A stretch of 64,000 nucleotides of DNA from Candidatus Krumholzibacteriota bacterium (GCA_016931295.1 JAFGEZ010000004.1:34745-98744), one strand, 5' to 3'; counted from the stretch's first letter, positions 5,226-27,800 are shown. A program made the numbers and translations. The notes: generated from the sequence alone by a model not told the origin.

Positions 5226-5245
5226 GCCGCGGAGGAAATGCTGAT

Positions 5246-6213: not shown

Positions 6214-6238
6214 CACGCAGCAGAGAGGTGAGCTGGAC

Positions 6239-7459: not shown

Positions 7460-7472
7460 TGGAGCAGGATAC

Positions 7473-9326: not shown

Positions 9327-9345
9327 GGCAGGGAAAGGCGGAAGG

Positions 9346-9939: not shown

Positions 9940-9952
9940 GGGGGAGCCGGCG

Positions 9953-10441: not shown

Positions 10442-10447
10442 CGACGG

Positions 10448-10798: not shown

Positions 10799-10814
10799 AC
10801 AAGCCGGGGTGCAC

Positions 10815-12308
10815 ATGCAGGGATATTATCCGTTATTCACGGCGTTACCGCTCGCGGCGGCGTTCTTCAACCTCCTCGTGACGAAGATCAACCAGAAGTT
10901 CGCCGACGTCATCGCCTTCGTCGTGACCGGGGCGCTGGCCGTCATGGCGGTCCTCATGCTCTTCGAGCCGTCCTTCGTCTACCACGTCGGTGGGCACGAC
11001 GCCCCCTGGGGCATCCTCCTCGTCAACGACGGCCTGAGCACGCTCATGCTGGTGGTGATCAACGTCATCGGCTTCCTCGCCATGATCTTCTCGCTCCGGT
11101 ACATGACCACCTACACGGCCAAGCCGAAGTATTTCACGCTCTACATGCTGATGATCGCGGGGATGAACGGCGTCGTCATCACGGGCGACCTGTTCAACCT
11201 CTACGTCTTCCTCGAGATCGCGTCGATCGCCTCCTACGCCCTCGTCGGGTTCGGCACGGGGCGGCGGGAGCTCGAGGCCTCCTTCAAGTACCTGATCCTC
11301 GGGAGCGTCGCCTCGACGGCCGTCCTCTTCGGGATCGCCTTCATGTACTCGATGACCGGCACGCTGAACATGCCGGACATGGCGCAGCAGCTCGCCCTCG
11401 TGGGGATGAACCGGGCCGTGGCCTTCGTCATCGCCCTCTTCATCATGGGCTTCGGTTTGAAGGCCTCCACGGTGCCCTTCCACGCCTGGCTGCCCGACGC
11501 CCACCCGAGCGCGCCGGCGCCGATCTCCGCGATGCTCTCCGGGGTGCTGATCAAGGCGCTCGGGATCTACACGATCATGCGCGTCATGTTCCACGTCATC
11601 GGGCGGAACGCCCTCGTGGCCTCGATACTGATGTTCCTCGGGGCCCTCTCGATGGTCGTCGCCGGGCTCATCGCGATCGGCCAGAGCGATTTCAAGCGGA
11701 TGCTCGCCTATTCGTCGATCAGCCAGATGGGATACGTGCTGATCGGCGTCGGCGTGGCGCTCAACCCCGCGGCGACGCCGGTCGTCGCCGCCTTCGGGCT
11801 CGTCGGCGGGCTCTTCCACCTCGTCAACCACGCCGTCTTCAAGTCGCTCCTCTTCCTCGCTTCCGGCGCCGTCGAATACTGCACCGGCACGAGAGACCTG
11901 CACAAGCTCGGCGGGCTCATCAGGAAGATGCCGGTCACCGGCGTCGCGACGGCCATCGGCTCGATGTCGATCGCCGGGCTGCCGCCCTTCAACGGGTTCG
12001 TCTCGAAACTCCTGATCTTCATCGCCCTTTTCAAGGGCGGATACATGATCTACGGCATCGTCGCCGTGGCCGTGGGGTTCGTGACCCTGTTCTACTTCCT
12101 CAAGCTGCAGCGCGACGTGCTCTTCGGCTCGTTGCCGGCCGCCCTCGCCTCGGTGCGGGAAGCGCCCTTCGCCATGACGCTGCCGCTCGTCATCCTCGCG
12201 CTTCTCTGCCTCGCGATGGGAGTGGGATACACGTTCGTCGACTCGCATATGCTCCAGGCGGCCAAGGACGCCCTCCTGGACCAGGTGGCGTACATCAACC
12301 TCTTGTAA
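10815..12308 (+). CDS. MrpD/NuoM-like antiporter-type membrane subunit
   Basis: About 497 aa from ATG 10815 (track ORF starts at GTG 10809). NuoM/MrpD family motifs (HAWLPDAHPSAPAPISA, HAVFKSLLFLASGAV). Confidence 0.8.
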   Translation: MQGYYPLFTALPLAAAFFNLLVTKINQKFADVIAFVVTGALAVMAVLMLFEPSFVYHVGGHDAPWGILLVNDGLSTLMLVVINVIGFLAMIFSLRYMTTYTAKPKYFTLYMLMIAGMNGVVITGDLFNLYVFLEIASIASYALVGFGTGRRELEASFKYLILGSVASTAVLFGIAFMYSMTGTLNMPDMAQQLALVGMNRAVAFVIALFIMGFGLKASTVPFHAWLPDAHPSAPAPISAMLSGVLIKALGIYTIMRVMFHVIGRNALVASILMFLGALSMVVAGLIAIGQSDFKRMLAYSSISQMGYVLIGVGVALNPAATPVVAAFGLVGGLFHLVNHAVFKSLLFLASGAVEYCTGTRDLHKLGGLIRKMPVTGVATAIGSMSIAGLPPFNGFVSKLLIFIALFKGGYMIYGIVAVAVGFVTLFYFLKLQRDVLFGSLPAALASVREAPFAMTLPLVILALLCLAMGVGYTFVDSHMLQAAKDALLDQVAYINLL

Positions 12309-12335
12309 GGGGCCGGAAAAGGGAAAAGGGAGAAG

Positions 12336-12821
12336 ATGAAACGCATCATTCACTTTATCATCCTGATGATCGTCTGGCTGCTGCTGACCTGGTCGCTCCA
12401 GTGGCAGGAAGTGCTCGTCGGCGTTGTCGTCTGCCTGCTCGCCGAGCTGCTGCTCGGTGACATCTTCCCCCACGGCGCGGTCTACATCTTCAGCCCCGTG
12501 CGGCTCTTCTGGATGATCGTCTACACCGTCGTCTTCATCGCCTTCGTCGTCAGGGCGAATTTCGACGTGGCCTACCGCGTGCTGAACATCTACATGCCGA
12601 TCCGGCCGGGCATCGTGAAGGTGCGGACGGCGCTCAAGACCGACATGGCGAGGACCTTCCTCGCCAACTCGATCACGCTCACGCCGGGAACGCTCAGCGT
12701 CGACATGATCGACGACCATCTCTACGTGCACTGGATCAACATCACATCCGAGGATCCCGAGAAGGAGACGGAGATCATCGTGCGGCGGTTCGAGAAGCTG
12801 CTAGAAAGGGTGTTCGAGTAG
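12336..12821 (+). CDS. MrpE-like subunit
   Basis: 161 aa small membrane protein following mrpD. RBS AAGGGAGAAG upstream. Confidence 0.55.
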   Translation: MKRIIHFIILMIVWLLLTWSLQWQEVLVGVVVCLLAELLLGDIFPHGAVYIFSPVRLFWMIVYTVVFIAFVVRANFDVAYRVLNIYMPIRPGIVKVRTALKTDMARTFLANSITLTPGTLSVDMIDDHLYVHWINITSEDPEKETEIIVRRFEKLLERVFE

Positions 12822-13075
12822 TGAACGCAATTATCGCGCTATTGATTCTGTGCATCTTCCTGTGCATGTACCGGGTCGGGAAGGGCCCGACCGCGCCGGA
12901 CCGGACGGTCGCGATCGACATTCTCGGCACGCTGGTGGTGGGGTTCTGCGCCCTCTACACCATCATCACGGGGAAGGACCTCTACATGAACATCGGCATC
13001 TCGTGGGCGCTGCTCAGCTTCATCGGCACCCTCGCCCTGGCCAAGTATCTCGAAGGGAGGGGTTTCGATGAGTGA
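12821..13075 (+). CDS. MrpF-like subunit
   Basis: 84 aa from a GTG start overlapping the upstream stop by 1 nt. MnhF-like hydrophobic mini-protein. Confidence 0.55.
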   Translation: MNAIIALLILCIFLCMYRVGKGPTAPDRTVAIDILGTLVVGFCALYTIITGKDLYMNIGISWALLSFIGTLALAKYLEGRGFDE

Positions 13076-13409
13076 GACGATCGGACTGATACTGCTCATC
13101 GTGGGCATCTCCTTCGACGTCGTCGGGTGCATCGGGCTGGTGCGGCTCCCCGACATCTACAACCGCCTCCAGGCGGCGACGAAATGCGTCACGCTCGGCA
13201 CCTGCATGATCCTGTTGAGCGTCCCCTTCTACACGGGATTCAACTCGATGGGCATGAAGGCGCTGCTGTGCATCTGGTTCGTGCTGCTGACATCGCCGAC
13301 GGGGGCGCACGCCATCGCGCGCGCCGCCCACCGCTCGGGGATCCGCCTCTGGGAGGGCAGCGTCATGGACAAGTACGCGGAGGACCGCGAGGGCGCCGAG
13401 GACAATTGA
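13068..13409 (+). CDS. MrpG-like subunit
   Basis: 113 aa. Start overlaps the upstream gene by 8 nt. MnhG-like. Confidence 0.6.
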   Translation: MSETIGLILLIVGISFDVVGCIGLVRLPDIYNRLQAATKCVTLGTCMILLSVPFYTGFNSMGMKALLCIWFVLLTSPTGAHAIARAAHRSGIRLWEGSVMDKYAEDREGAEDN

Positions 13410-13444
13410 CGATCACGTAACGACACCGGGGGTTCAGACCGGCC

Positions 13445-14071
13445 ATGCGGAAACCGAAACTCAGAGAGCTGAAGGAGGCCCTGAACGCACTGTTCACGGG
13501 CCCGTACACGAGCAAGTTCCCCAAGGTGGCGCCGACGGTCCCCGCTCATTTCCGGGGCACGCCCACGTACGTCCCCGACGAGTGCGTCGGCTGCGGCGCG
13601 TGCGGCCAGGTCTGCCCCGCCGGCGCGATCGAGATCGCCGACGAGTTCAGCGAGGAGAAGGGCCGGCTCGTCCGCCGGATCACGCGCGACTGGGGCAAGT
13701 GCATCTTCTGCTCCCAGTGCTTCGTCTACTGCATCACGAAGAAGGGGATCGAGCTCGATCCCGACTTCGAGAAGTCGACGCTCGACCCGGCGACCAACAT
13801 CAACGAGCACGAGAAGGAGCTTCTCTTCTGCGAGAAGTGCGGGGGCGTGATCACCGCTGTCGACCACGTGACGTGGATGGCGCGCAGGCTCGGCGAGCTC
13901 GCCTTCGCCAACCAGACCTTCATGGTGGCGAAGATGGGCGAGCTGAAGCTGGTCGAGGAGACGGCGCCCCGCGAGGCCGAACGCGGTCTCGAACGGCAGG
14001 ACTTCATCCGTATCCTCTGCCCGAACTGCCGCGCCTCCTACATCCTCACCGACGAGTGGGGACAGAGCTGA
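13445..14071 (+). CDS. NuoI/MbhN-like 2x[4Fe-4S] subunit
   Basis: 208 aa. CVGCGACGQVCP and CIFCSQCFVYC motifs. Confidence 0.75.
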   Translation: MRKPKLRELKEALNALFTGPYTSKFPKVAPTVPAHFRGTPTYVPDECVGCGACGQVCPAGAIEIADEFSEEKGRLVRRITRDWGKCIFCSQCFVYCITKKGIELDPDFEKSTLDPATNINEHEKELLFCEKCGGVITAVDHVTWMARRLGELAFANQTFMVAKMGELKLVEETAPREAERGLERQDFIRILCPNCRASYILTDEWGQS

Positions 14072-14096
14072 CGAGGGGAAGAGACGGACATGCGAC

Positions 14097-14124
14097 GGGG
14101 CCCCCGCCGGGGGGCCTTTTTTTT
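14097..14124 (+). terminator. putative Rho-independent terminator (GC stem + T8)
   Basis: GGCCCCC/GGGGGCC stem with 4-nt loop at 14099..14116 followed by TTTTTTTT 14117..14124. Located after the nuoI-like gene and before hycI. Confidence 0.45.
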
Positions 14125-14181
14125 CGGGACGCCGGCCAACCCCGACCGCGGGACGCCGGCCGGACGAAAGGGCGAGGATCG

Positions 14182-14661
14182 ATGACGGACGAGGCCGGAA
14201 AGATCGTCGAACGGCTCCGCGGCAGGCGCTTCGGCGTCGTCTGCGTGGGAAACGATTTCCGGGGTGACGACGGGGCCGGTCCGGCCCTCGCCGCCGTGCT
14301 GGCCGGGCGGAAGATCGCCGCGCCGGTCGTCGACGCGACGGAGGTCCCGGAGAACTACGGCGGCTGGCCGGCGAAGGAGGGGCTCGAGAGCGTCCTCTTC
14401 GTCGACGCCGTCGAGATGGGAGCCGAGCCGGGCGTCTTCCAAATCATCCCCCTCGGGAAGCTGATGGTCTCGGCGAGCAGCACCCACCGCCTCTCGCTCC
14501 ACTTCACGATCCGCTTTCTCGAGAACGACTGGGACGGCGACGCCTTCCTCGTGGGCGTGCAGCCGAAGTCGATCGAGCTGGACGCCGGCCTCTCCGACGA
14601 GGTCCGCGCCGGCGTCGAAGCCCTCGCCGACGCGATCGAGCGGGCGGCGGGGGCGCCCTGA
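14182..14661 (+). CDS. hycI: hydrogenase maturation endoprotease (HycI/HybD family)
   Basis: 160 aa from ATG 14182. VGNDFRGDDGAGPA motif of hydrogenase maturation proteases. Sits in the 3' part of artefactual ORF 13582..14661. Confidence 0.75.
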   Translation: MTDEAGKIVERLRGRRFGVVCVGNDFRGDDGAGPALAAVLAGRKIAAPVVDATEVPENYGGWPAKEGLESVLFVDAVEMGAEPGVFQIIPLGKLMVSASSTHRLSLHFTIRFLENDWDGDAFLVGVQPKSIELDAGLSDEVRAGVEALADAIERAAGAP

Positions 14662-14689: not shown

Positions 14690-17356
14690 CTAGCGCAAGA
14701 GAACCATCTTCCGTGACTGCTCGAAAAATGCCGTCTTGACGCGGTAGAAGTAGACACCGCTCGCGACGCGCGAGCCGCGATCGTCCGTGCCGTCCCAGAC
14801 GACCGAGTACCGCGCGGCGGGGCGATGCTCGTTTACGAGGGTGCGCACGAGTGCGCCGGTCACGTCGTAGACGGCGAGGACGACGCGCGCGTCCCGGTCG
14901 ATCGAGAAGGCGATGCAGGTCGTCGGGTTGAAGGGATTGGGGTAGGCGGCGCCGAGCGCGTTCCTTGCGGGCGGAACGTCGTCGACGACGCCGGCGACCT
15001 CGACGGACAGGATCGAGCCGTCGGCGGCGAGCGCCTCGCCGAAGAGGCACGCGACCCCGTCGGGATCGGCCGCGCCGACGACGTCGAAGACCATCGTGCC
15101 GAGCTCGATCTCGCCGCCCTCCGCGTTGTCGAGCGAGAAGGCGGAGAGGAGGATCAGGTCCCGTCCGTGGTTACGGACCGGCGTGGCCACTGAGGCCACG
15201 GCGCAGGACGGATTCGGCTCCCAGGCGGCGAAGCGGACGGCGCCGGTTGATCCGTCGAACCCAAGGGTCGCTACCGGGATCGCCGTACGCGGCGCGAGAC
15301 GCACGGTGACGCAGAGCCGGTCGCCGATGCGCCGCGTCGCGAGACGGGCCCCGGCGGCGGCGCGGCCGTTCGTCGCGAGATAGAGCGGCGCGGGAGCGTA
15401 AATCGGCAGGCCGTGGTAGTAGTGCTCTCCCATGAAGGAGTAGTCGGACAGGTTCGTCCTGTCGTCGCCGTTGAAGTCGAAGTAGTCGTTGTAGCCGGCG
15501 TCGCCCCGCTGCTTGTTGTAGGTTTCGCCGAAGAAGGAGATGTCGCTCAGGTTGACCGTGCCGTCCGCGTTGTAGTCGGGGCTCTTGACGACGATGCCGC
15601 CGGCGTGCCCGAGCACGAATTCCCGGAAGCGGACGAGGAGCGAATCGGCCGCGCAGTCGTCGCCCGGCCCGGGGGTGTCGACGCTGGAGCAGGAATCGGA
15701 GAGGGTCGTCTCCCAGCCGTTGCCGGACGTGGCCGTCGAATCGGCGTGGACCGGATCGAGCCAGAAGACGTAGCGGCCCCCGGCCGAGCATGTCGCCATC
15801 GTCAGGTCACCGGCGACCAGGGGGCCCTCCATGTCGCCGTCGAGGAGATCGACGCCCACGACGAAGCGGTCCCAGTCGCCGCCGGGGCACCCGCACATGA
15901 AGGTGTCGCCGTCTGCGGCGACGGTGCCGGCGTCGCGTTCGTATTCCGCCCACAGGTCGCAGGCGGGCACGTACTGCAGCGAGGGGTGGGCGAGGCGCTG
16001 TGCGTAGACGTCATAGTTGCCGTTCCGGAAGTCGTACCAGGCGACGATGCCCCCATCGGTGAGGATCGGATGATGCTGCTCGCCGTTCGAGGAGCAGATC
16101 GCAACGCCGTTCGCCGTCCATGCGGCCTGGCCGCAGCGATCGAGCCGCTGTGCATAGATGGCGTCGGTGCTCCGCCCGTCGCACCACGCGACGACGACGC
16201 CGCCGCGGCCATCGGGCGCGACGCAGGGATGCGGGCAATCGGATTCGTACGCGCAGACGACGACGCCGTTCGCGCCCCACGCGCGCGTGCCGTCGCAGCG
16301 CACGCGGCTCGCGAGGACCTCGCCGCCGTCCGGGACGGCGATGATGACGCCGCAGGAGTCGTCGGTCGACACCGAGTACTCGCTGTAGTAATCGAGGTCG
16401 GTGATGGCGAGGGTCGGCGTCGCCTCGACGCCGTTGCTCGCCCACAGCCGCGTGCCGTCAGCGTCGTAGCGCTGGGCGTAGATCTCCGCCTCGTCGGGAT
16501 TGGGGTCGTAGTCGTGGTTTCTCGCATCGTACCAGGTGACGATGCAACCGCCGGCGCCGTCGGCGATGATCCGGGGCTGGAACTGGAGGCTGTCCGCGTC
16601 GCAGACCGTCCGGGCGCCGCCGAACCACGAGCTGCCGCCGTCGCGGTCGAGCGCGTAGAGCATGATGTCGCCGTTCTGATTGGCGTACGCGATGAACGCG
16701 CCGCCCTCGCCATCGGCGACCATCTCGTAGTTGTAATCGCCCTCGTACGCGTTGCTGACCACCACGGCGTTTTCCCAGAGAGGTTCGCCGTCGGGGCCGA
16801 TCCGCTGCGCCAGGAGGTTCGCGTCCTGGAAGAGGACGATCGCGCCGCCGTTCCAGTCGGAGACGATGCGCGGAAAGAGAGGGCTCCCGTAGCTCTCGTA
16901 CACGAGCTCGCCCCCGCTCGTCCATACCTCGTTGCCGTCAGCATCGATCCGCTGGGCATAGACGTCGCATGGCGACTGGGTGTCCGCGTTCATCGTCCAG
17001 ACGACGATCACGCCGCCCTCGCCGTCGGCGGCGAGGCGCAGGTGGCCCCAGGCGAGCGTCGGCGCGTTGCCGCTCTTGACGGCGACGCCGTTCGAGGTCC
17101 ACTGGACCGCGCCCGACGAATCGATCTTCTGGACGTAGTACTCGGGGTAGTCGTACCCGGCGCGCTCGTCCATCCACCCGATGAACGCGCCCCCGCGACC
17201 GTCGCGCAGGACGTGCCGGCACAGCTGGCGGCCGGTCGACGTGCAGACGGCGACGCCGTTCACCGACCACTCGATCTCGCTCGCCACGGCCGCGGCCGCG
17301 GCGAGGATCGAGACGCCCAAAAAGAGGAGAAGACAGGATGCGGAAAAGGATCTCAT
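14690..17356 (-). CDS. secreted repeat (beta-propeller-like) protein with C-terminal T9SS-type sorting domain
   Basis: About 888 aa from ATG (complement 17356). N-terminal signal peptide MRSFSASCLLLFLGVSILAAAAA. At least five YAQR(I/L/Y)DxxG..W repeats. C-terminus YPNPFNPTTCIAFSI...VWDGTDDRGSRVASGVYFYRV matches the Por/T9SS C-terminal sorting domain. Confidence 0.7.
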   Translation of the reverse strand: MRSFSASCLLLFLGVSILAAAAAVASEIEWSVNGVAVCTSTGRQLCRHVLRDGRGGAFIGWMDERAGYDYPEYYVQKIDSSGAVQWTSNGVAVKSGNAPTLAWGHLRLAADGEGGVIVVWTMNADTQSPCDVYAQRIDADGNEVWTSGGELVYESYGSPLFPRIVSDWNGGAIVLFQDANLLAQRIGPDGEPLWENAVVVSNAYEGDYNYEMVADGEGGAFIAYANQNGDIMLYALDRDGGSSWFGGARTVCDADSLQFQPRIIADGAGGCIVTWYDARNHDYDPNPDEAEIYAQRYDADGTRLWASNGVEATPTLAITDLDYYSEYSVSTDDSCGVIIAVPDGGEVLASRVRCDGTRAWGANGVVVCAYESDCPHPCVAPDGRGGVVVAWCDGRSTDAIYAQRLDRCGQAAWTANGVAICSSNGEQHHPILTDGGIVAWYDFRNGNYDVYAQRLAHPSLQYVPACDLWAEYERDAGTVAADGDTFMCGCPGGDWDRFVVGVDLLDGDMEGPLVAGDLTMATCSAGGRYVFWLDPVHADSTATSGNGWETTLSDSCSSVDTPGPGDDCAADSLLVRFREFVLGHAGGIVVKSPDYNADGTVNLSDISFFGETYNKQRGDAGYNDYFDFNGDDRTNLSDYSFMGEHYYHGLPIYAPAPLYLATNGRAAAGARLATRRIGDRLCVTVRLAPRTAIPVATLGFDGSTGAVRFAAWEPNPSCAVASVATPVRNHGRDLILLSAFSLDNAEGGEIELGTMVFDVVGAADPDGVACLFGEALAADGSILSVEVAGVVDDVPPARNALGAAYPNPFNPTTCIAFSIDRDARVVLAVYDVTGALVRTLVNEHRPAARYSVVWDGTDDRGSRVASGVYFYRVKTAFFEQSRKMVLLR

Positions 17357-17738
17357 GAACAGACCTCCACGGTTGCGGCGCACTCGCGCCGATACCCTTC
17401 GCCCGGAATACGCTTTCGGGCGCGTACGCGTGCGGCCGACGAACCCCCATCGGGCCGCCTCGTGCGCGCTGGACACGTTCCCGCGCGCTCGTCGGCATGG
17501 CCGGCGGCCGCACCGCGATCGGATTGAAACGGAGTGCGATACTGGACGTTGCCCCTGAACCCGTCTTCCACTATACGTGCTTCGTCACGCGAGTCAATCT
17601 GTTTATTGTATTATGTCGCTCAAATATTTCTCGCGACCGATTTCATCGCTTGCGGCCAGCGCAGAAGTCGTATATCATCTCTGCTTGTAAATCGTTGTGT
17701 TCTCGCGCAAGGGGCGGCGTCATATTATCGCAAGAACG

Positions 17739-17775
17739 CGTAAACAATATGTGATAGTGTAAAATATTGTTTACG
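17739..17775. promoter_or_regulatory. 12-bp perfect inverted repeat (CGTAAACAATAT-N13-ATATTGTTTACG) in AT-rich promoter region
   Basis: Seen directly in the sequence. Lies about 100 bp upstream of ATG 17877 in a locally AT-rich intergenic segment (17560..17876). Candidate operator. Confidence 0.4.
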
Positions 17776-17876
17776 TCTTGGCGGCGTCCGGTTTCTGGCT
17801 GACGCCGGAGCCGGCCACACCCCGAACGGCCAGGGAGTCCGGGCGCGGGGCGCATCGCAACGGAAAGGAGGCGCGG

Positions 17877-18227
17877 ATGAGACGGAACCGGATGATCCTT
17901 GCCGCGGGCGTGCTCGTGTGCGCGGCGGCGGTGTTCGTCGTCTTCGCTCTCGCTTCGCGGGGAGCGAACGCCGGCTTCTACGACGACGGCGACGTCCTCG
18001 TGATCGAGATCGACGAGTGCATCGGGTGCGGGGCGTGCGAGGGGATCGCCGACTGCATCGCCGTGGAGGATCACGCGTACTTCGTCGAGGGAGCGGACGG
18101 CGAGCCGTGTCCAGACTCCGACCATTGCGGCATCGTCTACAATAGCGCGATCCGCAGGGAACTCGTCGCCACCTGTCCTTTCTGCTTCATCAGGGAGAAG
18201 GAGAGCACCGACGACTGCTGCAACTGA
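17877..18227 (+). CDS. small exported/membrane-anchored Cys-rich ferredoxin-motif protein (paralog 1)
   Basis: 116 aa. RBS AAAGGAGG. N-terminal hydrophobic anchor MRRNRMILAAGVLVCAAAVFVVFALA. CIGCGACEGIADC...ATCPF arrangement like single-cluster 4Fe-4S ferredoxins. Confidence 0.5.
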   Translation: MRRNRMILAAGVLVCAAAVFVVFALASRGANAGFYDDGDVLVIEIDECIGCGACEGIADCIAVEDHAYFVEGADGEPCPDSDHCGIVYNSAIRRELVATCPFCFIREKESTDDCCN

Positions 18228-18300
18228 CGGACGTTCCGCGGGACGCGGGCGGGCGTGTCGTCCGCGGCGGCCCCGGAGACGCCGGCGGCGGATTCGATGC

Positions 18301-18324
18301 GCGGGCGGCCGGTCGGCCGCCCGC
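18301..18324. terminator. GC-rich hairpin between convergent genes
   Basis: GCGGGCGGCC-GGTC-GGCCGCCCGC perfect 10-bp stem, seen directly. Confidence 0.35.
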
Positions 18325-18330
18325 GCCGTC

Positions 18331-19059
18331 TCATCTGGCCGGCGTGGCGGTTTCCGCCCCGGCGAGGCGCGGGTCGTCGGGGGCGAGCCGGCGGCATCGT
18401 TCGAGCTGGGCCGCCGCCGCCTCGCGGCGGCCGCACCCGCGCAGGATCCTCAGGCAGAGGAATTCGATGTCGGGCTGCACGGACCGGCGACCGGGATCGT
18501 CGAGATCGACGCCGGCGCACGAGAGCCCGCCGCGCAGCGTCTCGAGGGCGCCGGCGAAGTCGCCCGTCTCGCACTCGACGCGCGCGAGTGCGACGCGCGT
18601 GCCGGCGTCCGACGGCTTCAGCTCGATCGCCCGCCGGTATGCGGCGACGCACGCATCGTGCTGTCCGAGGCGCCTGTGGGCGAGCCCCTTTTTGTGCCAC
18701 GGGCAGGCCCACGCCGGTCGCTCGGCGACGAGTCCGTCGTAGAGGACGAGCGCCTCTCGCGCGCGCCCGAGGCGCAGGAGGATGTTGGCGTAACCGAAGC
18801 GGGCGCGCGGGGGCATCGAGGCGGCGGCGCCCTCGAGAAGGGCGAGGTCGCCCGAGAGGGCACGCTGGTGCAACTCGAGCAGCTCGGCGATGGCGGCGGC
18901 GCTGTCGGCCGGGGCGCAGCGATCGAGCCGCGCGTGGCATGCCGCGAAGGCGGCGCGGTCCGGCGCCGTTTCCGAACGCGTCGCCGGCGCGGCGGCGGGC
19001 GCGGCGACGGCGGCGGCTGCTGCGAGCGCCGCGATGACAAAGAGCCTTTTCTCCGACAT
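18331..19059 (-). CDS. TPR-repeat protein with signal peptide
   Basis: About 242 aa from ATG (complement 19059). Signal-like MSEKRLFVIAALAAAAAVAAPAAA. TPR-like helical repeats (ALVLYDGL..., AYRRAIEL...). Confidence 0.55.
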   Translation of the reverse strand: MSEKRLFVIAALAAAAAVAAPAAAPATRSETAPDRAAFAACHARLDRCAPADSAAAIAELLELHQRALSGDLALLEGAAASMPPRARFGYANILLRLGRAREALVLYDGLVAERPAWACPWHKKGLAHRRLGQHDACVAAYRRAIELKPSDAGTRVALARVECETGDFAGALETLRGGLSCAGVDLDDPGRRSVQPDIEFLCLRILRGCGRREAAAAQLERCRRLAPDDPRLAGAETATPAR

Positions 19060-19118
19060 GGTCTTGTTCACACTCCGTTCCGCGGGTTCAGCGGAAACCG
19101 GTCACGCGGACCGGTCGT

Positions 19119-19457
19119 TCATTCGCACGGGTATTCGATCCACGGCACGATCGCGTTGACCGGGCAGCACTCCACGGCCTCGTAGGCATCCTCGCACGGA
19201 TTGACGAGAACGCACGAATTGGAGACGTACCCGCAGGTCGTGGACGAATTGAAGCGGGCCGTGCAGGTGTACTCGTCCTGCATGTAGATGTCCGGCCACG
19301 CGTAGTAGCAGACGCCGCAATCGATGCACTCCTCCTGGAGGATGATCAGGTACGCGCCGCCGGAGGATCTCGCCGGTGCCGGCAACGCCGCGTAGAGTGC
19401 GGCGAGGGCGACGACAGCGATGAAGACGACGGTCGCTCGCTGGATGGCAGCTCTCAT
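19119..19457 (-). CDS. small exported Cys-rich ferredoxin-motif protein (paralog 2)
   Basis: 112 aa. RBS AAAGGAG. Signal/anchor then EECIDCGVC...VECCPVNAI. Confidence 0.5.
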   Translation of the reverse strand: MRAAIQRATVVFIAVVALAALYAALPAPARSSGGAYLIILQEECIDCGVCYYAWPDIYMQDEYTCTARFNSSTTCGYVSNSCVLVNPCEDAYEAVECCPVNAIVPWIEYPCE

Positions 19458-19499
19458 CCGGTCTCCTTTCGTTGCGTCGGAGAAAAGGCAATTGCACTA

Positions 19500-20340
19500 T
19501 CAGTTAGACGTCGAACGCACGCAATTTCCCGGCCCGAACATGTTGATAATACAAAATATCGGCAACGGCGGCGCGGGGTGCAAACAAACGGTTACACTTG
19601 TAAGATATTGGCGACAACCGCCCGGTTCCGTCCAGGGATGGAACGGGTCTCCGCGATCCGGTGTAAACGCGTTGCGGGCGTGGATTCGAAGGAATACGAG
19701 CCTCGCGCGCATCCTCATCGCACCGATAAAGCCCGCCTCGACGACACCCTGCTATTCCATGAAAGGAAGATGATCAATCGCTTTGAATAATGTCAAAGGG
19801 ACATTCATTCGCTGCGTTATCGAGTTTTTCAATCTCTTCCGTATTCGAGGTGCTGTAATAGACACTCCACGTTTTCTCGAACAACGGCATCCCCTCCTCG
19901 ATACAGATGAGGCCGGGCGCCTCGTCAACGCATCGGCCACATCCGGTACAAGCATCCCTGTTTTCAAGCCTGTAAGTCTTTGTCTCCTCTTGCGCAACGA
20001 CGGAGACGACCAGGACTATGGCAATCGACACCAGAAAAACAATTGCCGTTCGCTTTCGCATCGGCGGCTCCTTTGGCGAAGTGTATGTTGGCACGTTAGA
20101 GTATTATATATATTTTATGACGTCAAGCACAATTTATTATATTTATTGCATTAACGGGGCGCAAGCGACGTAAATATCCCTATACTATGTCACATATATA
20201 TTATACCTTATTTGTCTTGATGGGTGTGTGGCGTCTTTGCTAGGTTCCTATAGATGAAGAGGTGTTATATGTGCTGATGACAAGCGCTGGCCGTTTCATC
20301 CATGCCCTTCGGGACCATCCGAAGCAGCCCGTTGGATCCT
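19500..20340. other. low-GC island / AT-rich divergent promoter region
   Basis: Visible drop in GC, including long A/T runs at 20100..20230, against the roughly 68% GC background. Confidence 0.5.
19774..20061 (-). CDS. small exported Cys-rich ferredoxin-motif protein (paralog 3, low-GC)
   Basis: 95 aa from ATG (complement 20061). RBS AAAGGAG. MRKRTAIVFLVSIAIVLVVSVVA anchor then CTGCGRC...NECPFDII. Coding sequence visibly lower GC than its neighbours. Confidence 0.5.
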   Translation of the reverse strand: MRKRTAIVFLVSIAIVLVVSVVAQEETKTYRLENRDACTGCGRCVDEAPGLICIEEGMPLFEKTWSVYYSTSNTEEIEKLDNAANECPFDIIQSD

Positions 20341-20350
20341 CGGGGTTTCT

Positions 20351-23300
20351 GTGCTGAAAATTCTGATACGCTACGAATCGAAACTCGTTCTTCGGAGTCG
20401 CCTGTTTGTCGGCGTTGCGGGGACTCTCCTGTCGGTCGTCGCGGTCGTGCAGTCGATTCGGATTGCGGCGGTCGTCAGAGAGGATTTCGATTATTCGTGG
20501 AAGGCCGGCCGTTTTCTCTGGCTCGCGGCATCCCTTCTGCCGACGGGAATTCCGTTGGAAACGGTCATCATTTCGACAATTACGATGTCGATCGTCTCCG
20601 TCTTTCTTGTCGACGCGGCGATTGGGCGTGATGGGCTGTTCGATACGGAAGCGGCCGCATCGGCGCGAAGCGTGACGAATCCCGAACTGGTCGCGGGAAA
20701 GACCATCGCCGTTCTGCTGGCCTGTGCATCGATCGTTGCGGTCGCCGAACTGCCCGCGATGATCTACAATCTTGCCGATCCCGACATCGCCGTGGATGCC
20801 GCCGCGTACCTGTATCTGCCACTGCTCGTTTTCCTGCCGGCCTTCGTTTTCGCTGCGGGAATCGTTCACTTCCTCCATGCGGCGAATCGCCACCGACAGG
20901 TGTTGCCCCCGGCTCTCGTCGCTCCCGTCGCCGCGCTGGGGCTCCTCGCATTGATTTCACTGGCCGGCATCTTCGATATTTTCGCCGTTTCCTCACCGCT
21001 CGTTCTGTCGCCGCTCGCGGGTGCGGGCGGAATCGGCCGAATCATCGCCCGGCGGGCGGTCGTTTTCTCGGCCGGCATCGCTCTCTGCGGCGCGGCGACA
21101 CACCTGTCGCGTCGTCCCCGGCAGGCCAGAGCGGTATACGTCGCAGTCCGTGGCATCGCTGCACTCGGTGCGGCAGCGGCGGTCGTACTGAGTTTCGCGA
21201 TCGTCTCGTCGGAAGGACGGGGTATACGGATCCGAGAACGGATGAGGAAGACCGGGACGACGTACGGAGTCGGTTCGGCAATCGCCGTGACCGACTGCGA
21301 TCTTATCGTTCGACATGAAGGGCAAAGCATCGACTGCACGGCGAGGATGCGCATCGCGAACGGGGAAAGCAGGGAAGCAGACAGCTATGTTTTCAATCTG
21401 AATCCCGGCCTCGAGATAACAAGCGTCTCGAGTACGAGGGGGGGCTGTCGGCGAAAACGGGAAGCGCATGTTCTCGTCGTCACGCCACCTCGCCCCCTGT
21501 TGCCGGGGTCCGTCGATACCCTGGAGTTCGCTTATCGCGGCCGCATCGACGAGGAGGCGATGTATCAGTACGCCGCGGAAAAAGACAGAGAGGACACGAA
21601 GCGCGAAAATGCGTATACGTTCCTGCGGCATGCGAGACGGTACGCCTTCGTGGAGCCTGGTATGGTCCTTCTCGTACCGGCGGCAGGGTGGTACCCGCGG
21701 GCGGGCGCAGGATTCGATCCGGGGGATCCTTCTCGTCGGCACGTCGACTTTACGCGGTACTCGCTCGACGTGACCGTCGCGGAGAGTCTCGTGCCGTTGT
21801 CGCAGGGCGGGAACCGCGATGCTGGCGGAGGAAGGTGGCTATTCGCCCCGGAAACGCCGCTTGCCGGCATATCGCTCGTTGCCGCGCCGTTCCGGACGCG
21901 ATCCGTCAATGTCGATTCGGTCACGTACCGTTGCCATACCTGCCGCGGTCACGATATCGGAGATCGTATCTTCCCGGCGCTCGGGGATACGATCGGGCCG
22001 GTCGTCCGTGGAATCAGGGAGGATGTGGAACGGAAGTACGGTCTCGTCTACCCGTTCCGGCGGTTCGCTCTCGTCGAGGTTCCCGCAACCTTCTCGTGGA
22101 TCGACGATCCGTTCCTCGTGACCGGAGACGCCGGAACGCAACCGGAGATGGTTTTCGTGCCCGAGAGGAAGGTCGGCCGGTTCGGCGGGCGCCAGTTCTT
22201 CGGTTTGCGCGCGATCTCGACTGGATTGCGTGGCATGAATGACGAGGATCCCACGCCCGAGCGGACACAGGCCGAGGCCTTGCGCGAAGTCGCGAATCCG
22301 CATCTGTCCCATCGGCTCTTTCTCTCGGGCGTACGGCATATCGTCCACCCGGACGTGCCGATCCTGGAAGCGGCTTTCGACGCCTACATCGCCTCCCGGC
22401 CCCTCGGCGGCCTCGTCCGCGTTGCCGGAGACGCGATGCGGGGCGAGGGAAGGGCCCCCGCCCCCGGGAATCTCAGCGCCCTCGAGACGGTGAACATGTC
22501 GCTGACGAAGCAAAGCATCCGATCGTTGGCCGCCGATGCGGCTGTCGATCGTCAGAGTCGAGCCGGAGTTGTGGTGAAAGGAGCATGGCTGTTCCGTTGC
22601 CTGGAGGCGAGTGTTGGCGAGGAAGTCTTCGCCGGACTGCTCGACTCGGCACTGACCGCGACTGCGTTCGAGCGTCTCGACGGCGATGCTCTTCTCGATG
22701 AGATCGGCAGGCTCGCACGCATCGACGCCCAGGATTTTCTGGCCGATTGGTACGTGGATACGGAGTTGCCGGCATACGAGATCGGCCGGATCTCCGTCGC
22801 GAAAGCACTGCGGGGCGATCGCGAGTTGTACAATATCCGGATCTGCGCGGCCAACACGGGAGCCGTCGGTGGGATGATCGAGGTCGAGGTGCTCTCCGGT
22901 GGACGCGACCGTTTCGCTCGACGGTATTGTCTCGACGGCGGAGAGGCGAAGGAATTCGGCATGCTCGTCTCGCGCCGTCCCCGCCGCGTGCTCGTCCATA
23001 CGCTGGTTTCGCGCAACCTTCCCGAGACGATCGCCTGGTTTCCGCGTGACGGGACGGTCGAAGATCCGGAAGAGATCCTCGATGGGAGCCGTTCCGTCAG
23101 CCTGGAGGAAATCACGGGCGAGGAGGCAGGAATCATCGTCGATAACGAGGACGACGGATTCGAGATCAAACGCGCGGAGACCGGCCTGCCCGGTCGGTTG
23201 CTGCCGTGGAGACGCGACGAGGACACCGGGCGCGGATATGTCTGCCTGGCCCGGAACGACTCGCCGCGGCGCTGGACGTTCGTCGTCGACCGGGCCTTTT

Positions 23301-23668
23301 ACGGCGGGATCGTCAGGTCGGCATGCGTCATCCGGGCGGGGCGTGGCGAGCGCGGCGTTTCCTGGAACGCAACCCTCCCGCGTTCAGGACGCTATGACGT
23401 CTACTCGTATCTGCCTCGGATGCGGGCGGGAATCGGGATTTCCGACCCGTTCATGTACGACAAGCCCTACCGGTATCTCCTCGCGCACGGTGAAGGCACG
23501 ACCGAGGTCGAAATCGTGCCGTATCGACGCGACGACGGATGGATACTGCTCGGACGGTACTCCTTTTCCATGGGGCCTGCGCGTGTCGAACTGAGCGACG
23601 AGTCGACGCACGGGCCGATCATCGCCGACGCCGTCAAGTGGGTGCCGGTGGACGATGGGACGCGTTGA
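20351..23668 (+). CDS. ABC-2-type permease fused to large extracytoplasmic M1-aminopeptidase-like (catalytically degenerate) domain, paralog A
   Basis: 1105 aa from GTG 20351. About 290-aa N-terminal polytopic region, then about 800-aa domain. Segment YGLVYPFRRFALVEVPATF resembles the M1 peptidase region preceding GAMEN, but GAMEN and HEXXH are absent. Paralogous to 24874..28206 (shared GWYPRAG and ADAVKWV motifs). Confidence 0.6.
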   Translation: MLKILIRYESKLVLRSRLFVGVAGTLLSVVAVVQSIRIAAVVREDFDYSWKAGRFLWLAASLLPTGIPLETVIISTITMSIVSVFLVDAAIGRDGLFDTEAAASARSVTNPELVAGKTIAVLLACASIVAVAELPAMIYNLADPDIAVDAAAYLYLPLLVFLPAFVFAAGIVHFLHAANRHRQVLPPALVAPVAALGLLALISLAGIFDIFAVSSPLVLSPLAGAGGIGRIIARRAVVFSAGIALCGAATHLSRRPRQARAVYVAVRGIAALGAAAAVVLSFAIVSSEGRGIRIRERMRKTGTTYGVGSAIAVTDCDLIVRHEGQSIDCTARMRIANGESREADSYVFNLNPGLEITSVSSTRGGCRRKREAHVLVVTPPRPLLPGSVDTLEFAYRGRIDEEAMYQYAAEKDREDTKRENAYTFLRHARRYAFVEPGMVLLVPAAGWYPRAGAGFDPGDPSRRHVDFTRYSLDVTVAESLVPLSQGGNRDAGGGRWLFAPETPLAGISLVAAPFRTRSVNVDSVTYRCHTCRGHDIGDRIFPALGDTIGPVVRGIREDVERKYGLVYPFRRFALVEVPATFSWIDDPFLVTGDAGTQPEMVFVPERKVGRFGGRQFFGLRAISTGLRGMNDEDPTPERTQAEALREVANPHLSHRLFLSGVRHIVHPDVPILEAAFDAYIASRPLGGLVRVAGDAMRGEGRAPAPGNLSALETVNMSLTKQSIRSLAADAAVDRQSRAGVVVKGAWLFRCLEASVGEEVFAGLLDSALTATAFERLDGDALLDEIGRLARIDAQDFLADWYVDTELPAYEIGRISVAKALRGDRELYNIRICAANTGAVGGMIEVEVLSGGRDRFARRYCLDGGEAKEFGMLVSRRPRRVLVHTLVSRNLPETIAWFPRDGTVEDPEEILDGSRSVSLEEITGEEAGIIVDNEDDGFEIKRAETGLPGRLLPWRRDEDTGRGYVCLARNDSPRRWTFVVDRAFYGGIVRSACVIRAGRGERGVSWNATLPRSGRYDVYSYLPRMRAGIGISDPFMYDKPYRYLLAHGEGTTEVEIVPYRRDDGWILLGRYSFSMGPARVELSDESTHGPIIADAVKWVPVDDGTR

Positions 23669-23945: not shown

Positions 23946-24830
23946 ATGGATATCCGTATCAGGGACCTGGAGATGGTCTACAAGGGGGGCACGCGCGCCC
24001 TCGCCGACGTCGACCTCGCGATCTCGAACGGGATGTTCGGGCTCCTCGGGCCGAACGGCGCCGGCAAGACGACTCTCATGCGCATCCTCGTCACCCTGAT
24101 GGAGCCCACCGCGGGCACGGTCGAGGTGGACGGGATGGACCTCGCCCGCAACCGAGGCGCCGTCCGCGCGATGACGGGCTACCTCCCGCAGGACTTCCGT
24201 TTCTTCCCGAAGATCCGCACGTGGGAGTTCCTCGACTACATCGCCGCCCTCGCCGGGTTGCGCGACGGGCGGAAGCGGCGCGAGGCCGTCGACGGGATGC
24301 TCCACCAGGTGGGGCTCTGGGAGGCGCGCGACCGTTTCGCCTCGAAGCTCTCCGGCGGGATGAAGCGGCGCCTCGGCATCGCCCAGGCCCTGATCGGCGA
24401 GCCGCGAATCGTCGTCGTCGACGAGCCGACGACCGGGCTCGATCCCGAGGAGCGCATCCGGTTCCGCAACCTTCTCTCCGGGCTGAGCGGCAAGGATATC
24501 GTCATCGTCCTCTCGACGCACATCGTCGGCGACATCTCGAGCACCTGCCGCGACATGGCTCTCCTCGACAGGGGGCGCGTCGTCTACAACGGCCCCCCCG
24601 ACGGACTCGTCGAGAAGGCGAAGGGGCACGCCTGGCGCGTGACGGCCATCGACAGCGAGCTCGAGGCGCTCAAGGAGCGCTACCCGGTGATCTCGACCGT
24701 CCCGGCCGCGGGGGGCTGGGAGGTCGACATCGTCGCGGAGAATCCTCCCGAGGGGGCGCCCGCCGAGCCGGTCGATCCGGACCTCGAGCACGCGTACGTC
24801 TATTTCATGGAATTCCTGACGCCGCAGTGA
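23946..24830 (+). CDS. ABC transporter ATP-binding protein
   Basis: 294 aa. Walker A GPNGAGKTT, signature LSGGMKRR, Walker B VVVDEPTTGLD. RBS GGGAGGG. Confidence 0.9.
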   Translation: MDIRIRDLEMVYKGGTRALADVDLAISNGMFGLLGPNGAGKTTLMRILVTLMEPTAGTVEVDGMDLARNRGAVRAMTGYLPQDFRFFPKIRTWEFLDYIAALAGLRDGRKRREAVDGMLHQVGLWEARDRFASKLSGGMKRRLGIAQALIGEPRIVVVDEPTTGLDPEERIRFRNLLSGLSGKDIVIVLSTHIVGDISSTCRDMALLDRGRVVYNGPPDGLVEKAKGHAWRVTAIDSELEALKERYPVISTVPAAGGWEVDIVAENPPEGAPAEPVDPDLEHAYVYFMEFLTPQ

Positions 24831-24873
24831 GCCGGGCCGGCTCCGGGGCGGGAACGAAAACGGGAGGCTTCAC

Positions 24874-27800
24874 GTGTATACCCTCCTCACCGTGGCGAAG
24901 GCCGAGATCAGGCTTCTCCTCAGGAGCTGGTTCTTCCGGATCCTCTCCCTCGCCGCCCTCGCGATCCTGGCCTTCATGAGCCTCGGGCTCTTCACCGGGT
25001 TCTGGGGGCAGCCGTGGGTCTTCCGCGGTCTCGGCACCACGATCCCCCTCATCAATATCCTCTACCTCAACGTGGTGCAGGCGATCGTGGCGGTCTTCCT
25101 CTCGGCCGACTTCCTGAAACGCGACCGCAAGCTCGACACCACCGAGGTCGTCTACATGCGGTCGATGCCGAACGTCACCTACGTCGCCGGCAAGACCCTC
25201 GGGATCCTCGTGGTCTTCGCCCTGCTCGATCTCGTCGTCCTCGTCATGTCGGCCGTCTTCAACATCGCCTTCTCCGGCGGGCCCTTCGTGGCCTCCGCGT
25301 ACATCGTCTACCCGCTCCTCGTGGCCCTTCCGACGATCGTCTTCACGCTGGGCTTCTCCTTTCTCCTCATGACGGTCGTCCGGAACCAGCCGGTCACATT
25401 CGTTCTCCTGCTCGGCGTGATCGGGATCTCCCTCTTCTGGCTCGGTCCCAAGCAGCACGGCCTCTTCGACCTGCTCGGCTTGCACCTGCCCCTCGTCAGG
25501 TCGGGGATCGCCGGCTTCGCCGATCCCTTCGGACTCGTCCTGCAGCGGGGCGTCTTCCTGCTGCTCGGCCTCGCCGGGATCGCGGCCACCTCCCTCAGGC
25601 TCCGCCGGCTCTCCCAGTCGCGCGCGGCGACGGTCGCATCGGGCGTCCTCGCGCTTTTCTTCCTCGCCGCGGCGGTCGCCGCCGCCGGGATGCACGACGC
25701 GCGGTTCCGCCGGGCCGCCGCGGCCCGCGAGGCGATGCGCGCCTTGACGGCGGAGCTCGCCGGCGAACCCGCGCCCGCAGTCGAGCGGTGCGATCTCTCC
25801 CTCGTCCACGAGGGGAACCGGATCGACTGCGAGGCGGCGATCCTGCTCGCCAACGACGGCGACCGGCCGATCGAGCGCTATCTCTTCACGCTCAACCCGG
25901 GGCTCGAGGTGCGCGGGGTCGAACGGGGCGGCCGCGAGGCGGCCTTCACGCGCGACCGTCACGTCCTCTCGGTGACGCCGCCGGCGGCCCTGCCGCCAGG
26001 CGCGCGCGACTCCCTCGTCGTCCAATACGGGGGCGCGATCGACGACGGCGCCTGCTATCTCGACACGGGCGAGGAGGGGCGGGAGCCCTGGTTCCGGATC
26101 GCGATGTTCGTCATCGGCGAGCGCCACGCCTGGGTGACCCCCTCCTGGGTGCTGTTGACCCCCGAGGCGGGGTGGTATCCGCGCGCGGGGATGCCGTACG
26201 ATCCGGCGCGGCCCGAGACGAGGATGGCCGGCTTCGCCCGCTACCGCCTCGACGTGACGACGAGGCCCGAACTCCTTTCCGTCTCGCAGGGCGCGAGGGA
26301 AAAGCGCGGGGAGGGGCGCTGGCTCTTCGAGCCGGAACGTCCGCTCGACGGCCTCACCCTCGCGATCGGCCGGTTCGAGGAGCGGGCGATCGAGGTCGAT
26401 TCCCTCCGGTACGCCCTCTGCATCCGGGAGGGGAACGACTGGTTCGACGAGTACATGGACGCCGTCGGCGACACCCTGCCCGAGCTCGTCCGGGAGGTCC
26501 GGGCCGATTACGAGCGGCTCCTCGGCCTCTCCTATCCCGACCGGCGGTACACGATCGTCGAGGTCCCCGTCACCTTCGTCGCCCGCGAGCGGCTCTGGTC
26601 GATGCAGCGCGAGACGATCCAGCCGGAGATCGTTTTGTTGCCCGAGCGGGGCCTCCTCGTGCAGGAGGCGGATTTCAACATGTTCAAGCGGCAGATGGGC
26701 CGCAGGCGCCGCGGACCGGCCGAGGAGCTGACCCCCGCCGAGGAGCAGAGCCGGCAGTTCACGCGGTTCGCCGGGCGGGTGCTCGCCGGGGAGCTGAGCG
26801 AGCGGGGCTTCATGAACGATCTGTACCAGAACAACCGCATCTTCAACGCCTTCCCGATGTACTACACGCACGTCACACACGTCGGCTCCGGGCGGTGGCC
26901 CGTTCTCGACGTGGCGCTCGAATCGTGGATCGCCGGGCGGATCGAGGGGGAGGCGAGCCCGTTCACGAGCTTCTTCGGCGGGTTGAGCAGCGAGGAGGAG
27001 ACCAACCTCGAACTCGCGAAGACGAGCCTCGCTGATCTCGTGGCCGATCCGGAAAAGCGCGCGGCAGCCCCGGACGCCCTTCGGGCGAAGGGGCGCCAGC
27101 TCTTTCTCCTTCTCCAGCGGCACGCCGGCGAGGAGGCCTTCGCCGCCCTCGTCGACGAAGCGATCGAGGCGGGGCGGTTCGGCGGCATCGATGCCGACCT
27201 GCTGTCCGACGAGATGGAAGGCCGCTTCGGCATCGATCTCGCCGCGACGATCGATCGGTGGTACGGGGGGCGCGACCTCCCCGGCTTCATCCTCGCGGGC
27301 GTCCGCTCCTATACCGTCGTCGACGAGAACGACCGGACGCGCTACGAGGTGCGTTTCGTCGTCGGCAACGACGAGCCGGCGGACGGCGCGGTCGTCGTGA
27401 CCTTCACCGCGCGCGGACGGGGGCGGGGCTTCTTCGGCCCGCCGGGAGGCGGCGACGAGGAGAGTGTCGAACGGACGATCTTCCTCGAGGGGGGACAGGC
27501 CCGGGAGGTGGGGTTCGTCCTCGATTTCCAGCCGCGGCGGATGACCGTCAACACCCTCGTCTCGAAGAATCTTCCCGCGGCGATGATCCGCAACTTCGAC
27601 GATTTCGAGGAGGGATCGGGCGGGATCTTCGACGGCGAGCGTGTCCTCGACGCCATGCCGGCGCTCGCCGAGCCCGGCGAGATCGTCGTCGACGACCTCG
27701 ATCCGGGATTCTCGATCACCGGCGAGCGGAGCGCCGGGCTGCTCCGGCGGCTTTTGCGCCGCGGGCGCGGCGAGGAGGAGAACGAGTACGAAGGGATCGG

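Follow-up and report, generated by a model that had tools for sequence, protein, structure and literature searches.

Three small genes predicted to pair Sec-type leaders with single-cluster ferredoxin domains in a Candidatus Krumholzibacteriota genome

Iron-sulfur (Fe-S) clusters are built in the cytoplasm, and for this reason the twin-arginine translocation (Tat) pathway, which exports folded proteins, is taken to be the only way for Fe-S proteins into the periplasm. A 64,000-nucleotide stretch of DNA from an uncultured, anaerobic Candidatus Krumholzibacteriota bacterium (GCA_016931295.1, JAFGEZ010000004.1:34745-98744; hereafter the window) raises the question of whether some small ferredoxins might take another route. 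Three of its genes, which we call A, B and C, encode short proteins in which a hydrophobic leader that looks to be of the general secretory (Sec) type precedes a ferredoxin-like core. The first-pass annotation of the window had described the pairing of an export leader with a ferredoxin as unexpected, and we agree, since Tat is the route known for exported Fe-S proteins (PMC10924467). From the sequence evidence assembled here, the chances appear about even that leaders of the Sec/signal recognition particle (SRP) type carry A, B and C, as monocluster ferredoxin domains, to the periplasmic side of the inner membrane or anchor them there.

Three leader-bearing genes with ferredoxin-like cores

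Gene A (17877..18227, plus strand) encodes 116 amino acids (aa) and is named a 'hypothetical protein' in GenBank (MBN1884248.1). Genes B (19119..19457, minus strand, 112 aa, MBN1884250.1) and C (19774..20061, minus strand, 95 aa, MBN1884251.1) both carry the name 'ferredoxin'. The three open reading frames (ORFs) translate as the first-pass annotation had described, and, as it had also claimed, the sequence AAAGGAG stands ahead of all three starts; it lies 5-6 nt from the ATG. This Shine-Dalgarno sequence lies at 17864..17870 (plus strand, 6 nt ahead of the ATG) in A, at 19463..19469 (minus strand, 5 nt) in B and at 20068..20074 (minus strand, 6 nt) in C. The window contains ten copies of AAAGGAG, compared with 3.7 +/- 1.8 expected from shuffled sequences, and three of the ten are the ribosome-binding sites of A, B and C. 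When the window and every fetched locus were scanned for CxxCxxC...CP behind a hydrophobic leader, A, B and C were the only proteins of the 64 kb with this pattern, all inside 2.2 kb.

A complete four-ligand set, CxxCxxC plus a distal Cys-Pro, is present in each protein: C48-x2-C51-x2-C54 ... C100-P in A (DECIGCGAC...TCPF), C44-x2-C47-x2-C50 ... C98-P in B (EECIDCGVC...ECCPV) and C38-x2-C41-x2-C44 ... C87-P in C (DACTGCGRC...ECPF). The 'ECP[FV]' proposed earlier is therefore slightly off for A, which has TCP, and for B, which has CCP. The mature parts of A and B contain 10 Cys each, and the gene C product contains five. B scored 26.5 against Pfam Fer4_13 (cut-off 24.5), and C scored 33.6 against Fer4_15 (cut-off 22.4) and 26.3 against Fer4_13. 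A is below all Pfam gathering cut-offs, with Fer4_2 and Fer4_4 as its best sub-threshold matches, but its comparison with an alignment of monocluster ferredoxins that included B and C gave an hhalign probability of 96.4% (E 1e-9). Among PDB entries, a profile of the group matched 1IQZ, 2Z8Q, 1DWL and 1ROF, all monocluster ferredoxins, with E values of 4e-9 to 1e-7. Matches to the NCBIfam models NrfC (E 0.035) and HydN (E 0.06) fell far under their cut-offs. A low-confidence AlphaFold model of B (mean predicted local distance difference test, pLDDT, 58) has a ferredoxin-like order of secondary-structure elements, and its best Foldseek matches in the PDB were the ferredoxins 1IQZ, 4OV1 and 4ID8, albeit with non-significant E values of 0.03-0.13 and TM scores of about 0.3-0.5. 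The Pfam results for B and C, the hhalign result for A and the PDB profile matches support the earlier proposal that the three cores are single-cluster ferredoxin domains.

The leaders begin with n-regions that contain two or three basic residues, followed by 17-20 hydrophobic residues, and their best 19-residue Kyte-Doolittle means are 2.3-3.0. The leader of A consists of MRRNRM and ILAAGVLVCAAAVFVVFALA, with candidate cleavage at ALA↓S or ANA↓G; that of B consists of MRAAIQR and TVVFIAVVALAALYAAL, with candidate cleavage at APA↓R; and that of C consists of MRKR and TAIVFLVSIAIVLVVSVVA, with candidate cleavage at VVA↓Q directly ahead of QEE. These AxA/VxA motifs, with small residues at -3/-1, are placed at distances typical of signal peptides. 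In the AlphaFold model of B, residues 2-24 form a helix with pLDDT values of 83-95. The charges of the N-terminal flank and of the 15 residues past the hydrophobic core are +3 and -2 in A (delta(C-N) -5), +2 and +1 in B (delta(C-N) -1), and +3 and -1 in C (delta(C-N) -4), and the mature domains carry a strong negative charge (net -10 to -15). Because of this charge bias, the positive-inside rule predicts an N-in/C-out topology with the ferredoxin domain outside. All three N-termini thus combine the basic n-region, h-region, -3/-1 residues and N-in bias by which a Sec signal or type II anchor is recognized, and the first-pass view of them as Sec-type signals or anchors with the domain outside agrees with these rules. 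Since the hydrophobic regions are long, a cleaved signal and a type II anchor are both possible.

We searched the downstream in-frame starts of A, B and C for Shine-Dalgarno sequences and found none. The GC content at third codon positions (GC3) within the leader codons is 0.88 in A and 0.81 in B, in line with the rest of each gene. The strong Shine-Dalgarno sequences of the full-length starts, the coding-type GC3 and the lack of an alternative start with a Shine-Dalgarno sequence indicate that the leaders are translated; the use of downstream starts to give soluble, leaderless ferredoxins was rejected on the same grounds. A lipoprotein signal was also rejected because there is no lipobox, and the VLVC of A does not fit one. 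No twin-arginine motif was found consistently across A, B and C. Compared with the Tat motif S/T-R-R-x-F-L-K, as defined in PMC10924467, A (MRRNRM) has Arg where a hydrophobic residue is wanted, B has no paired Arg and C reads MRKR. The h-regions are, in addition, far more hydrophobic than those of usual Tat signals. Overall, the leaders of A, B and C look Sec/SRP-type.

Relatedness and distribution

The first-pass annotation called A, B and C three paralogues, and the label holds in part. A and B share 31% identity over 55 aa (E 7e-4), and they have in common an inserted CG[IY]V[YS]NS segment, their 10 mature Cys and a GC3 of about 0.87. A and C are also similar (E 3e-3), but the similarity of B and C is not significant, and C looks compositionally foreign. 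Its GC3 is 0.57, compared with about 0.87 in A and B and about 0.9 in the genome, and its overall GC content is 0.50. C and its flanks occupy a low-GC island at about 19500-20300, in which the intergenic DNA at 20090-20280 is very AT-rich. C looks separately acquired because of its low GC and GC3 and the AT-rich island. By these sequence comparisons the relatedness among A, B and C is only loose, and to call them three paralogues was an overstatement.

A word-indexed search of 5.8 billion clusters with A, B and C recovered only the proteins themselves or their strain variants. With a full HMMER profile run against 1.84 billion representatives (E <= 1e-3), we obtained five non-self matches, two of which, P0004 (165 aa) and P0005 (99 aa), have the leader-plus-ferredoxin architecture. 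They score 37.6 and 46.8 bits, respectively, against Fer4_13, and both have basic and hydrophobic leaders (delta(C-N) -6 and -5) and extra Cys, with eight in the mature part of P0004 and six in that of P0005. Leader-bearing members contain 5-10 Cys per protein, compared with 4-6 in leaderless relatives. The gene for P0004 lies directly upstream of a gene for a DsbD_2 (CcdA-like) membrane protein. The gene for P0005 overlaps the start of a gene for an exported protein of 152-161 aa, which is followed by the gene for a 915-aa outer-membrane beta-barrel in a tight operon. P0004 and its DsbD_2 neighbor also lie in a low-GC segment (0.48-0.55, in a contig otherwise at about 0.58-0.68; L006 6000-8283), and the low-GC settings of C and P0004 hint at leader-ferredoxin cassettes that move horizontally.

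The other searches recovered no further leader-bearing member. A scan of GTDB species representatives with B found nothing, and a degenerate-pattern scan of GTDB gave leaderless ferredoxins only among the matches listed; among these matches, leaderless relatives with 28-40% identity occur in Paenibacillus, Synergistaceae and others. Plasmid and phage collections scanned with C gave no match, and the sole match in the viral collection was an ordinary 7Fe-type FdxA. No leader-ferredoxin genes were found beside the metagenome relatives (24-27% identity) of a 1105-aa protein encoded close to C. In the open-access literature, we found no description of a leader joined to a monocluster ferredoxin, nor of a Sec-dependent ferredoxin. 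The predicted architecture recurs in envelope-type contexts and is very rare at detectable similarity. The suggested new family is thus not a well-populated one, as only strain variants and two distant analogues were found, and no recurrent link to type IX secretion system or transporter genes was seen at the analogue and fetched loci.

At another locus (L024 5211-6546), the 181-aa protein P0007 is anchored by a hydrophobic N-terminus and has a pair of dicluster ferredoxin domains. Its gene overlaps the end of the gene for a 266-aa NapH-like (Fer4_5) protein, forming a NapGH-like pair, and this NapG-like protein has no twin-arginine signal.

Location and cofactor of the domains

In the reading that we prefer, the leader would be inserted N-in/C-out in the inner membrane, following the positive-inside rule, and would then be cut at its AxA/VxA site or retained as a type II anchor. 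In both cases, the ferredoxin domain, which is acidic and rich in Cys, would lie on the periplasmic side. The four canonical ligands most likely still bind a cubane Fe-S cluster, because the ligand set and its typical flanks are kept in A, B and C as well as in P0004 and P0005. The six extra Cys of A and B probably form disulfides that staple the small fold. The likely role would be that of a small extracytoplasmic one-electron carrier or Fe-S binding module, with B perhaps working with an exported, Cys-rich tetratricopeptide repeat (TPR) protein encoded just downstream.

Several observations weigh against this reading. The topology of A, B and C is a rule-of-thumb inference from charge bias, hydrophobicity and -3/-1 motifs, and Arg occupies position +1 (B) or +2 (A) of the candidate cleavage sites, which is unfavorable for Sec. 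To our knowledge, there is no known machinery for the insertion of Fe-S clusters outside the cytoplasm, and a Sec-delivered holo-ferredoxin would be unprecedented. The AlphaFold models of B are of low confidence, with a mean pLDDT of 48 (about 35 in the domain) from the single sequence and a marginally better 58 with a shallow seven-sequence alignment. Homologues of A, B and C are extremely sparse, and the case as a whole rests on three orphan genes from one metagenome-assembled genome and two distant analogues. The characteristic use of Tat by exported Fe-S proteins (PMC10924467) also counts here, as does the presence of a ferredoxin-dependent hydrogenase operon nearby and a 2-oxoacid:ferredoxin oxidoreductase 20 kb away, both of which need a cytoplasmic ferredoxin.

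Strain variation adds to these difficulties. Two strain references were compared with the window, L002 at 98.5-99.5% nt identity and L001 at about 93%. The L002 version of A (8244-8594) shows three synonymous changes and the replacement C51G, which removes the second ligand Cys (TGC → GGC, window positions 18027-18029). Loss of the second CxxCxxC ligand is typical of [3Fe-4S] ferredoxins, and an aligned P. furiosus ferredoxin has a non-Cys residue at the position equivalent to C51 (CIGDAIC); C51G may instead reflect relaxed constraint or a sequencing error. With its Pfam scores below the cut-offs and C51G in one strain, A may have drifted furthest of the three. C has a dN/dS of about 0.35 relative to L001; the L001 copy has a TGA at codon 2 and is broken by a scaffold gap with MoaB-like foreign sequence, and the scaffold is of low quality.

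The hydrogenase raises the possibility that A, B and C are membrane-tethered cytoplasmic ferredoxins that pass electrons from the 2-oxoacid:ferredoxin oxidoreductase to the adjacent membrane-bound group-4 hydrogenase. The N-terminal helix would then do no more than hold an ordinary [4Fe-4S] ferredoxin against the cytoplasmic side of the membrane. We consider this main rival unlikely, if by no means far-fetched. A begins about 3.2 kb downstream of the end (14661) of the group-4 hydrogenase/Mrp-type operon, the adjacency is also present in the strain contig L002, and the oxoacid:ferredoxin oxidoreductase lies within the window. Tethering would require no novel cluster-loading pathway, and B and C are canonical enough to have received the NCBI name 'ferredoxin'. 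However, the positive-inside rule favors the opposite orientation for A, B, C, P0004 and P0005, whose N-terminal flanks carry charges of +2 to +5 with mostly acidic flanks on the C-terminal side, and all five have AxA/VxA motifs at signal-peptide-like distances. The partners are exported or envelope proteins (the signal-bearing TPR protein, DsbD_2 and the outer-membrane barrel), and 10 Cys per 84-90 residues is atypical of cytoplasmic ferredoxins. A, B and C also stand outside the hydrogenase operon, from which they are separated by a divergent 928-aa gene, and have their own promoter regions. If our topology call is wrong, the genes would encode membrane-tethered electron donors for the neighboring hydrogenase, a useful but ordinary annotation.

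An improbable but serious alternative accepts export and dispenses with the cluster: the proteins would be disulfide-rich or otherwise metal-binding mini-proteins with a structural, binding or antagonistic role, and the one-time ligand Cys would be paired in disulfides. Sec exports unfolded apo-protein and no periplasmic Fe-S assembly is known, and the mature parts have an even number of Cys in A and B (10 in both), P0004 (8) and P0005 (6). The cluster-less reading is most plausible for A, which is under the Pfam cut-offs and tolerates C51G in a strain variant. The variation of B is also in keeping with it. B and its L001 counterpart (5563-5901) differ by six nonsynonymous and no synonymous changes (dN 0.024, dS 0), compared with a dS of 0.107 and a dN of 0.019 in a neighboring ATP-binding cassette (ABC) ATPase gene, a pattern common in surface or secreted proteins. 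Two of the changes (YY → AD) directly follow the third ligand Cys; all 10 Cys are kept in three strain variants of B, in which seven other positions vary. The substitution pattern suggests a recent sweep with diversifying change, or a metagenome consensus artefact. On the other hand, B, C, P0004 and P0005, which span very distant lineages, all keep the full CxxCxxC...CP set together with its typical flanks (PDIY/APxxF, a helix before CP and a hydrophobic strand after it), and the Cys number of C is odd. The DsbD_2 protein adjoining P0004 might speak for disulfides, but a DsbD_2/CcdA-type reductant fits reduced ligand thiols at least as well as it fits disulfide isomerization. If the proteins are cluster-less, the ferredoxin scaffold would have been reused as a disulfide-rich envelope protein.

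A cluster might also be gained after export. We think it quite doubtful that Sec exports A, B and C as ferredoxins whose cubane cluster is then acquired outside the cytoplasm, for use as periplasmic electron carriers or as scavengers of environmental FeS; if so, Fe-S proteins would have a way out of the cytoplasm that is independent of Tat. Loading might then be spontaneous in an anoxic habitat rich in Fe(II) and sulfide, or proteins of the envelope might aid it, for example the Cys-rich TPR protein encoded with B or the CcdA-like DsbD_2 protein at the P0004 locus. The outer-membrane barrel operon of P0005 hints at the capture of FeS for uptake. If the proteins are truly exported and hold a cluster, the Tat-only rule would be challenged, and the acquisition of clusters outside the cytoplasm in anaerobes would be implied.

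In a further reading, A, B and C would be Tat substrates with degenerate signals, folded and loaded with a cluster in the cytoplasm and exported folded as other periplasmic Fe-S proteins are. Tat is the sole established route for exported Fe-S proteins (PMC10924467), A has R2-R3, the N-R-R-I-V-L of P0005 resembles RRxFL, and Arg in or just past the c-region of A and B is reminiscent of Sec avoidance. We nevertheless judge this reading very unlikely. B lacks paired basic residues, C and P0004 have RKR and RKK, A has an Arg two positions past its RR, and the very hydrophobic leaders with very short n-regions are Sec/SRP-like; no Tat genes were found within the 64-kb window. We give hardly any credence to the bacteriocin-like product suggested in the first-pass annotation, whether a Sec-dependent peptide or a modified Cys-rich precursor: the genes are small, Cys-rich, leader-bearing, strain-variable, poorly conserved and clustered, with an ABC ATPase and large permease-like proteins downstream, but the domain is recognizable as a ferredoxin, and the plasmid and phage collections gave no matches. 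Modification enzymes (radical-SAM, lanthipeptide or other), C39 peptidase-ABC exporters, double-glycine leaders and immunity genes are all missing from the surrounding 20 kb or so, and the ABC ATPase downstream, which goes with Golvesin_C proteins, does not have the C39 peptidase-ABC architecture.

Neighboring features and known systems

Pfam scans identified a formate hydrogenlyase/Mbh-like group-4 [NiFe] hydrogenase cluster upstream of A, at 1-14661. It comprises a molybdopterin oxidoreductase, a Fer4_11 protein, NADHdh (HycD-like), Complex1_49kDa/NiFeSe large subunit (HycE-like), MbhD/E, MnhB/E, Mrp-type antiporter subunits, a dicluster Fe-S protein and the HycI protease. The divergent gene between this cluster and A encodes a 928-aa secreted protein with a C-terminal FlgD_ig domain. 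In the AT-rich region between the 928-aa gene and A, a perfect 11-bp palindrome, GTAAACAATAT-N13-ATATTGTTTAC (17740..17774), is unique in the window and is a candidate operator for an unnamed regulator. C lies upstream of B, with 316 nt between them.

The TPR gene (18331..19071, minus strand) is directly downstream of B and convergent with A. It encodes about 242-246 aa with a Sec-type signal (MSEKRLFVIAALAAAAAVAAPAAAPA) and nine Cys. TPR_2, TPR_8 and TPR_19 exceeded their Pfam cut-offs in this protein and TPR_CcmH_CycH was sub-threshold (E 0.021); PDB comparisons gave generic or designed TPR matches only, and no specific chaperone family. The TPR gene shares the strand of B and begins 47-59 nt after it, with no predicted terminator in the gap, and the two are plausibly co-transcribed, as the first-pass annotation had proposed. 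A and the TPR gene converge, and a perfect 13-bp GC-rich hairpin with a 2-nt loop (18299..18326) that separates their stop codons is likely a bidirectional terminator. A consensus scan predicted no terminators, having missed this hairpin because it has no T-run, and found two promoter-like sites, about the same number as in shuffled sequences. An Rfam scan of 17300-20500 found no RNA family.

A perfect 14-nt complementarity on the minus strand brackets the whole B ORF. Its 5' arm, GCCUUUUCUCCGAC (19476..19489), is in the 5' untranslated region of B, just upstream of the ribosome-binding site, and its 3' arm, GUCGGAGAAAAGGC (19044..19057), runs from the third base of the TPR ATG (19059) to the first base of codon 6 (MSEKRL). 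For a 471-nt mRNA segment (z = -2.1), the minimum free energy fold and the centroid fold are both closed by this helix. The arm sequences are identical in L001 and the window, with no differences in the 50-bp bins 19450-19499 and 19050-19099; the intergenic region between C and B is about 12% diverged from L001. This long-range helix may couple or gate the translation of the TPR gene.

Downstream of C, paralogous Golvesin_C membrane proteins encoded at 20351-23668 (1105 aa) and 24820-28206 (1128 aa) flank an ABC ATPase gene (23946-24830). They are multi-pass proteins with the Golvesin_C domain at the C-terminus, and their metagenome relatives are only 24-27% identical. Further along, a single stop-to-stop frame of 1607 codons (33929-38752) follows a second resistance-nodulation-division (RND) pump and the OEP and HlyD genes. 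It encodes a full AcrB-type RND domain (residues 30-1058) and an ABC ATPase domain (1328-1470); the frame may be an unusual fusion, or it may consist of two in-frame genes with no stop between them. Among the large ORFs of the window, Pfam scans recovered no genes of the radical-SAM, peptidase-ABC, Tat, Dsb or Ccm kinds, and no Rnf genes were found among the window neighbors scanned.

Among known systems, RnfB/RsxB resembles A, B and C in that Fe-S ferredoxin domains come after a hydrophobic helix at the N-terminus. In RnfB, however, the N-terminus is uncharged and basic residues lie past the helix, an arrangement that puts the Fe-S domains on the cytoplasmic side, and RnfB belongs to a six-subunit Rnf operon. 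A, B and C show the opposite charge bias and have no Rnf genes nearby; the RNF chain 8RB9_B was matched only non-significantly by the low-confidence model of B. The maturation of c-type cytochromes, with its TPR chaperones CcmI/NrfG and reductant supplied by CcdA/DsbD, offers an analogy only: there, too, a Cys-motif protein is exported unfolded, and a TPR gene lies beside B and a CcdA-like DsbD_2 gene beside P0004. In contrast to the cytochromes, A, B and C lack the CxxCH haem motif and are not accompanied by Ccm genes, and the TPR protein is only generically similar.

Periplasmic-side Fe-S domains, often membrane-anchored, are found in the Tat-exported NapG, NrfC, HybA and DsrO and in tail-anchored ferredoxins (PMC10924467). 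These are proteins of the CooF/HybA type with four clusters, clear twin-arginine signals, often C-terminal anchors, and quinol dehydrogenase or reductase partners. A, B and C differ in having one motif per protein, no consistent RR, Sec/SRP-like leaders and no such partners.

The closest likeness in the core is to the monocluster ferredoxins of B. thermoproteolyticus (1IQZ), P. furiosus (2Z8Q/1SIZ) and T. maritima (1ROF/1VJW) and to Desulfovibrio Fd I, which share with A, B and C the CxxCxxC...CP motif, a domain of about 60-70 residues and the acidic character; the low-confidence model of B also has its secondary-structure elements in a matching order. The members known so far are cytoplasmic, soluble proteins with no leader and with 4-6 Cys, whereas A, B and C carry a basic/hydrophobic leader of 23-32 residues, and A and B have six extra Cys and the inserted CG[IY]V[YS]NS segment. 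The monocluster ferredoxin is thus a kind already known, and what appears to be new at this locus is the Sec-type leader on a predicted Fe-S domain.

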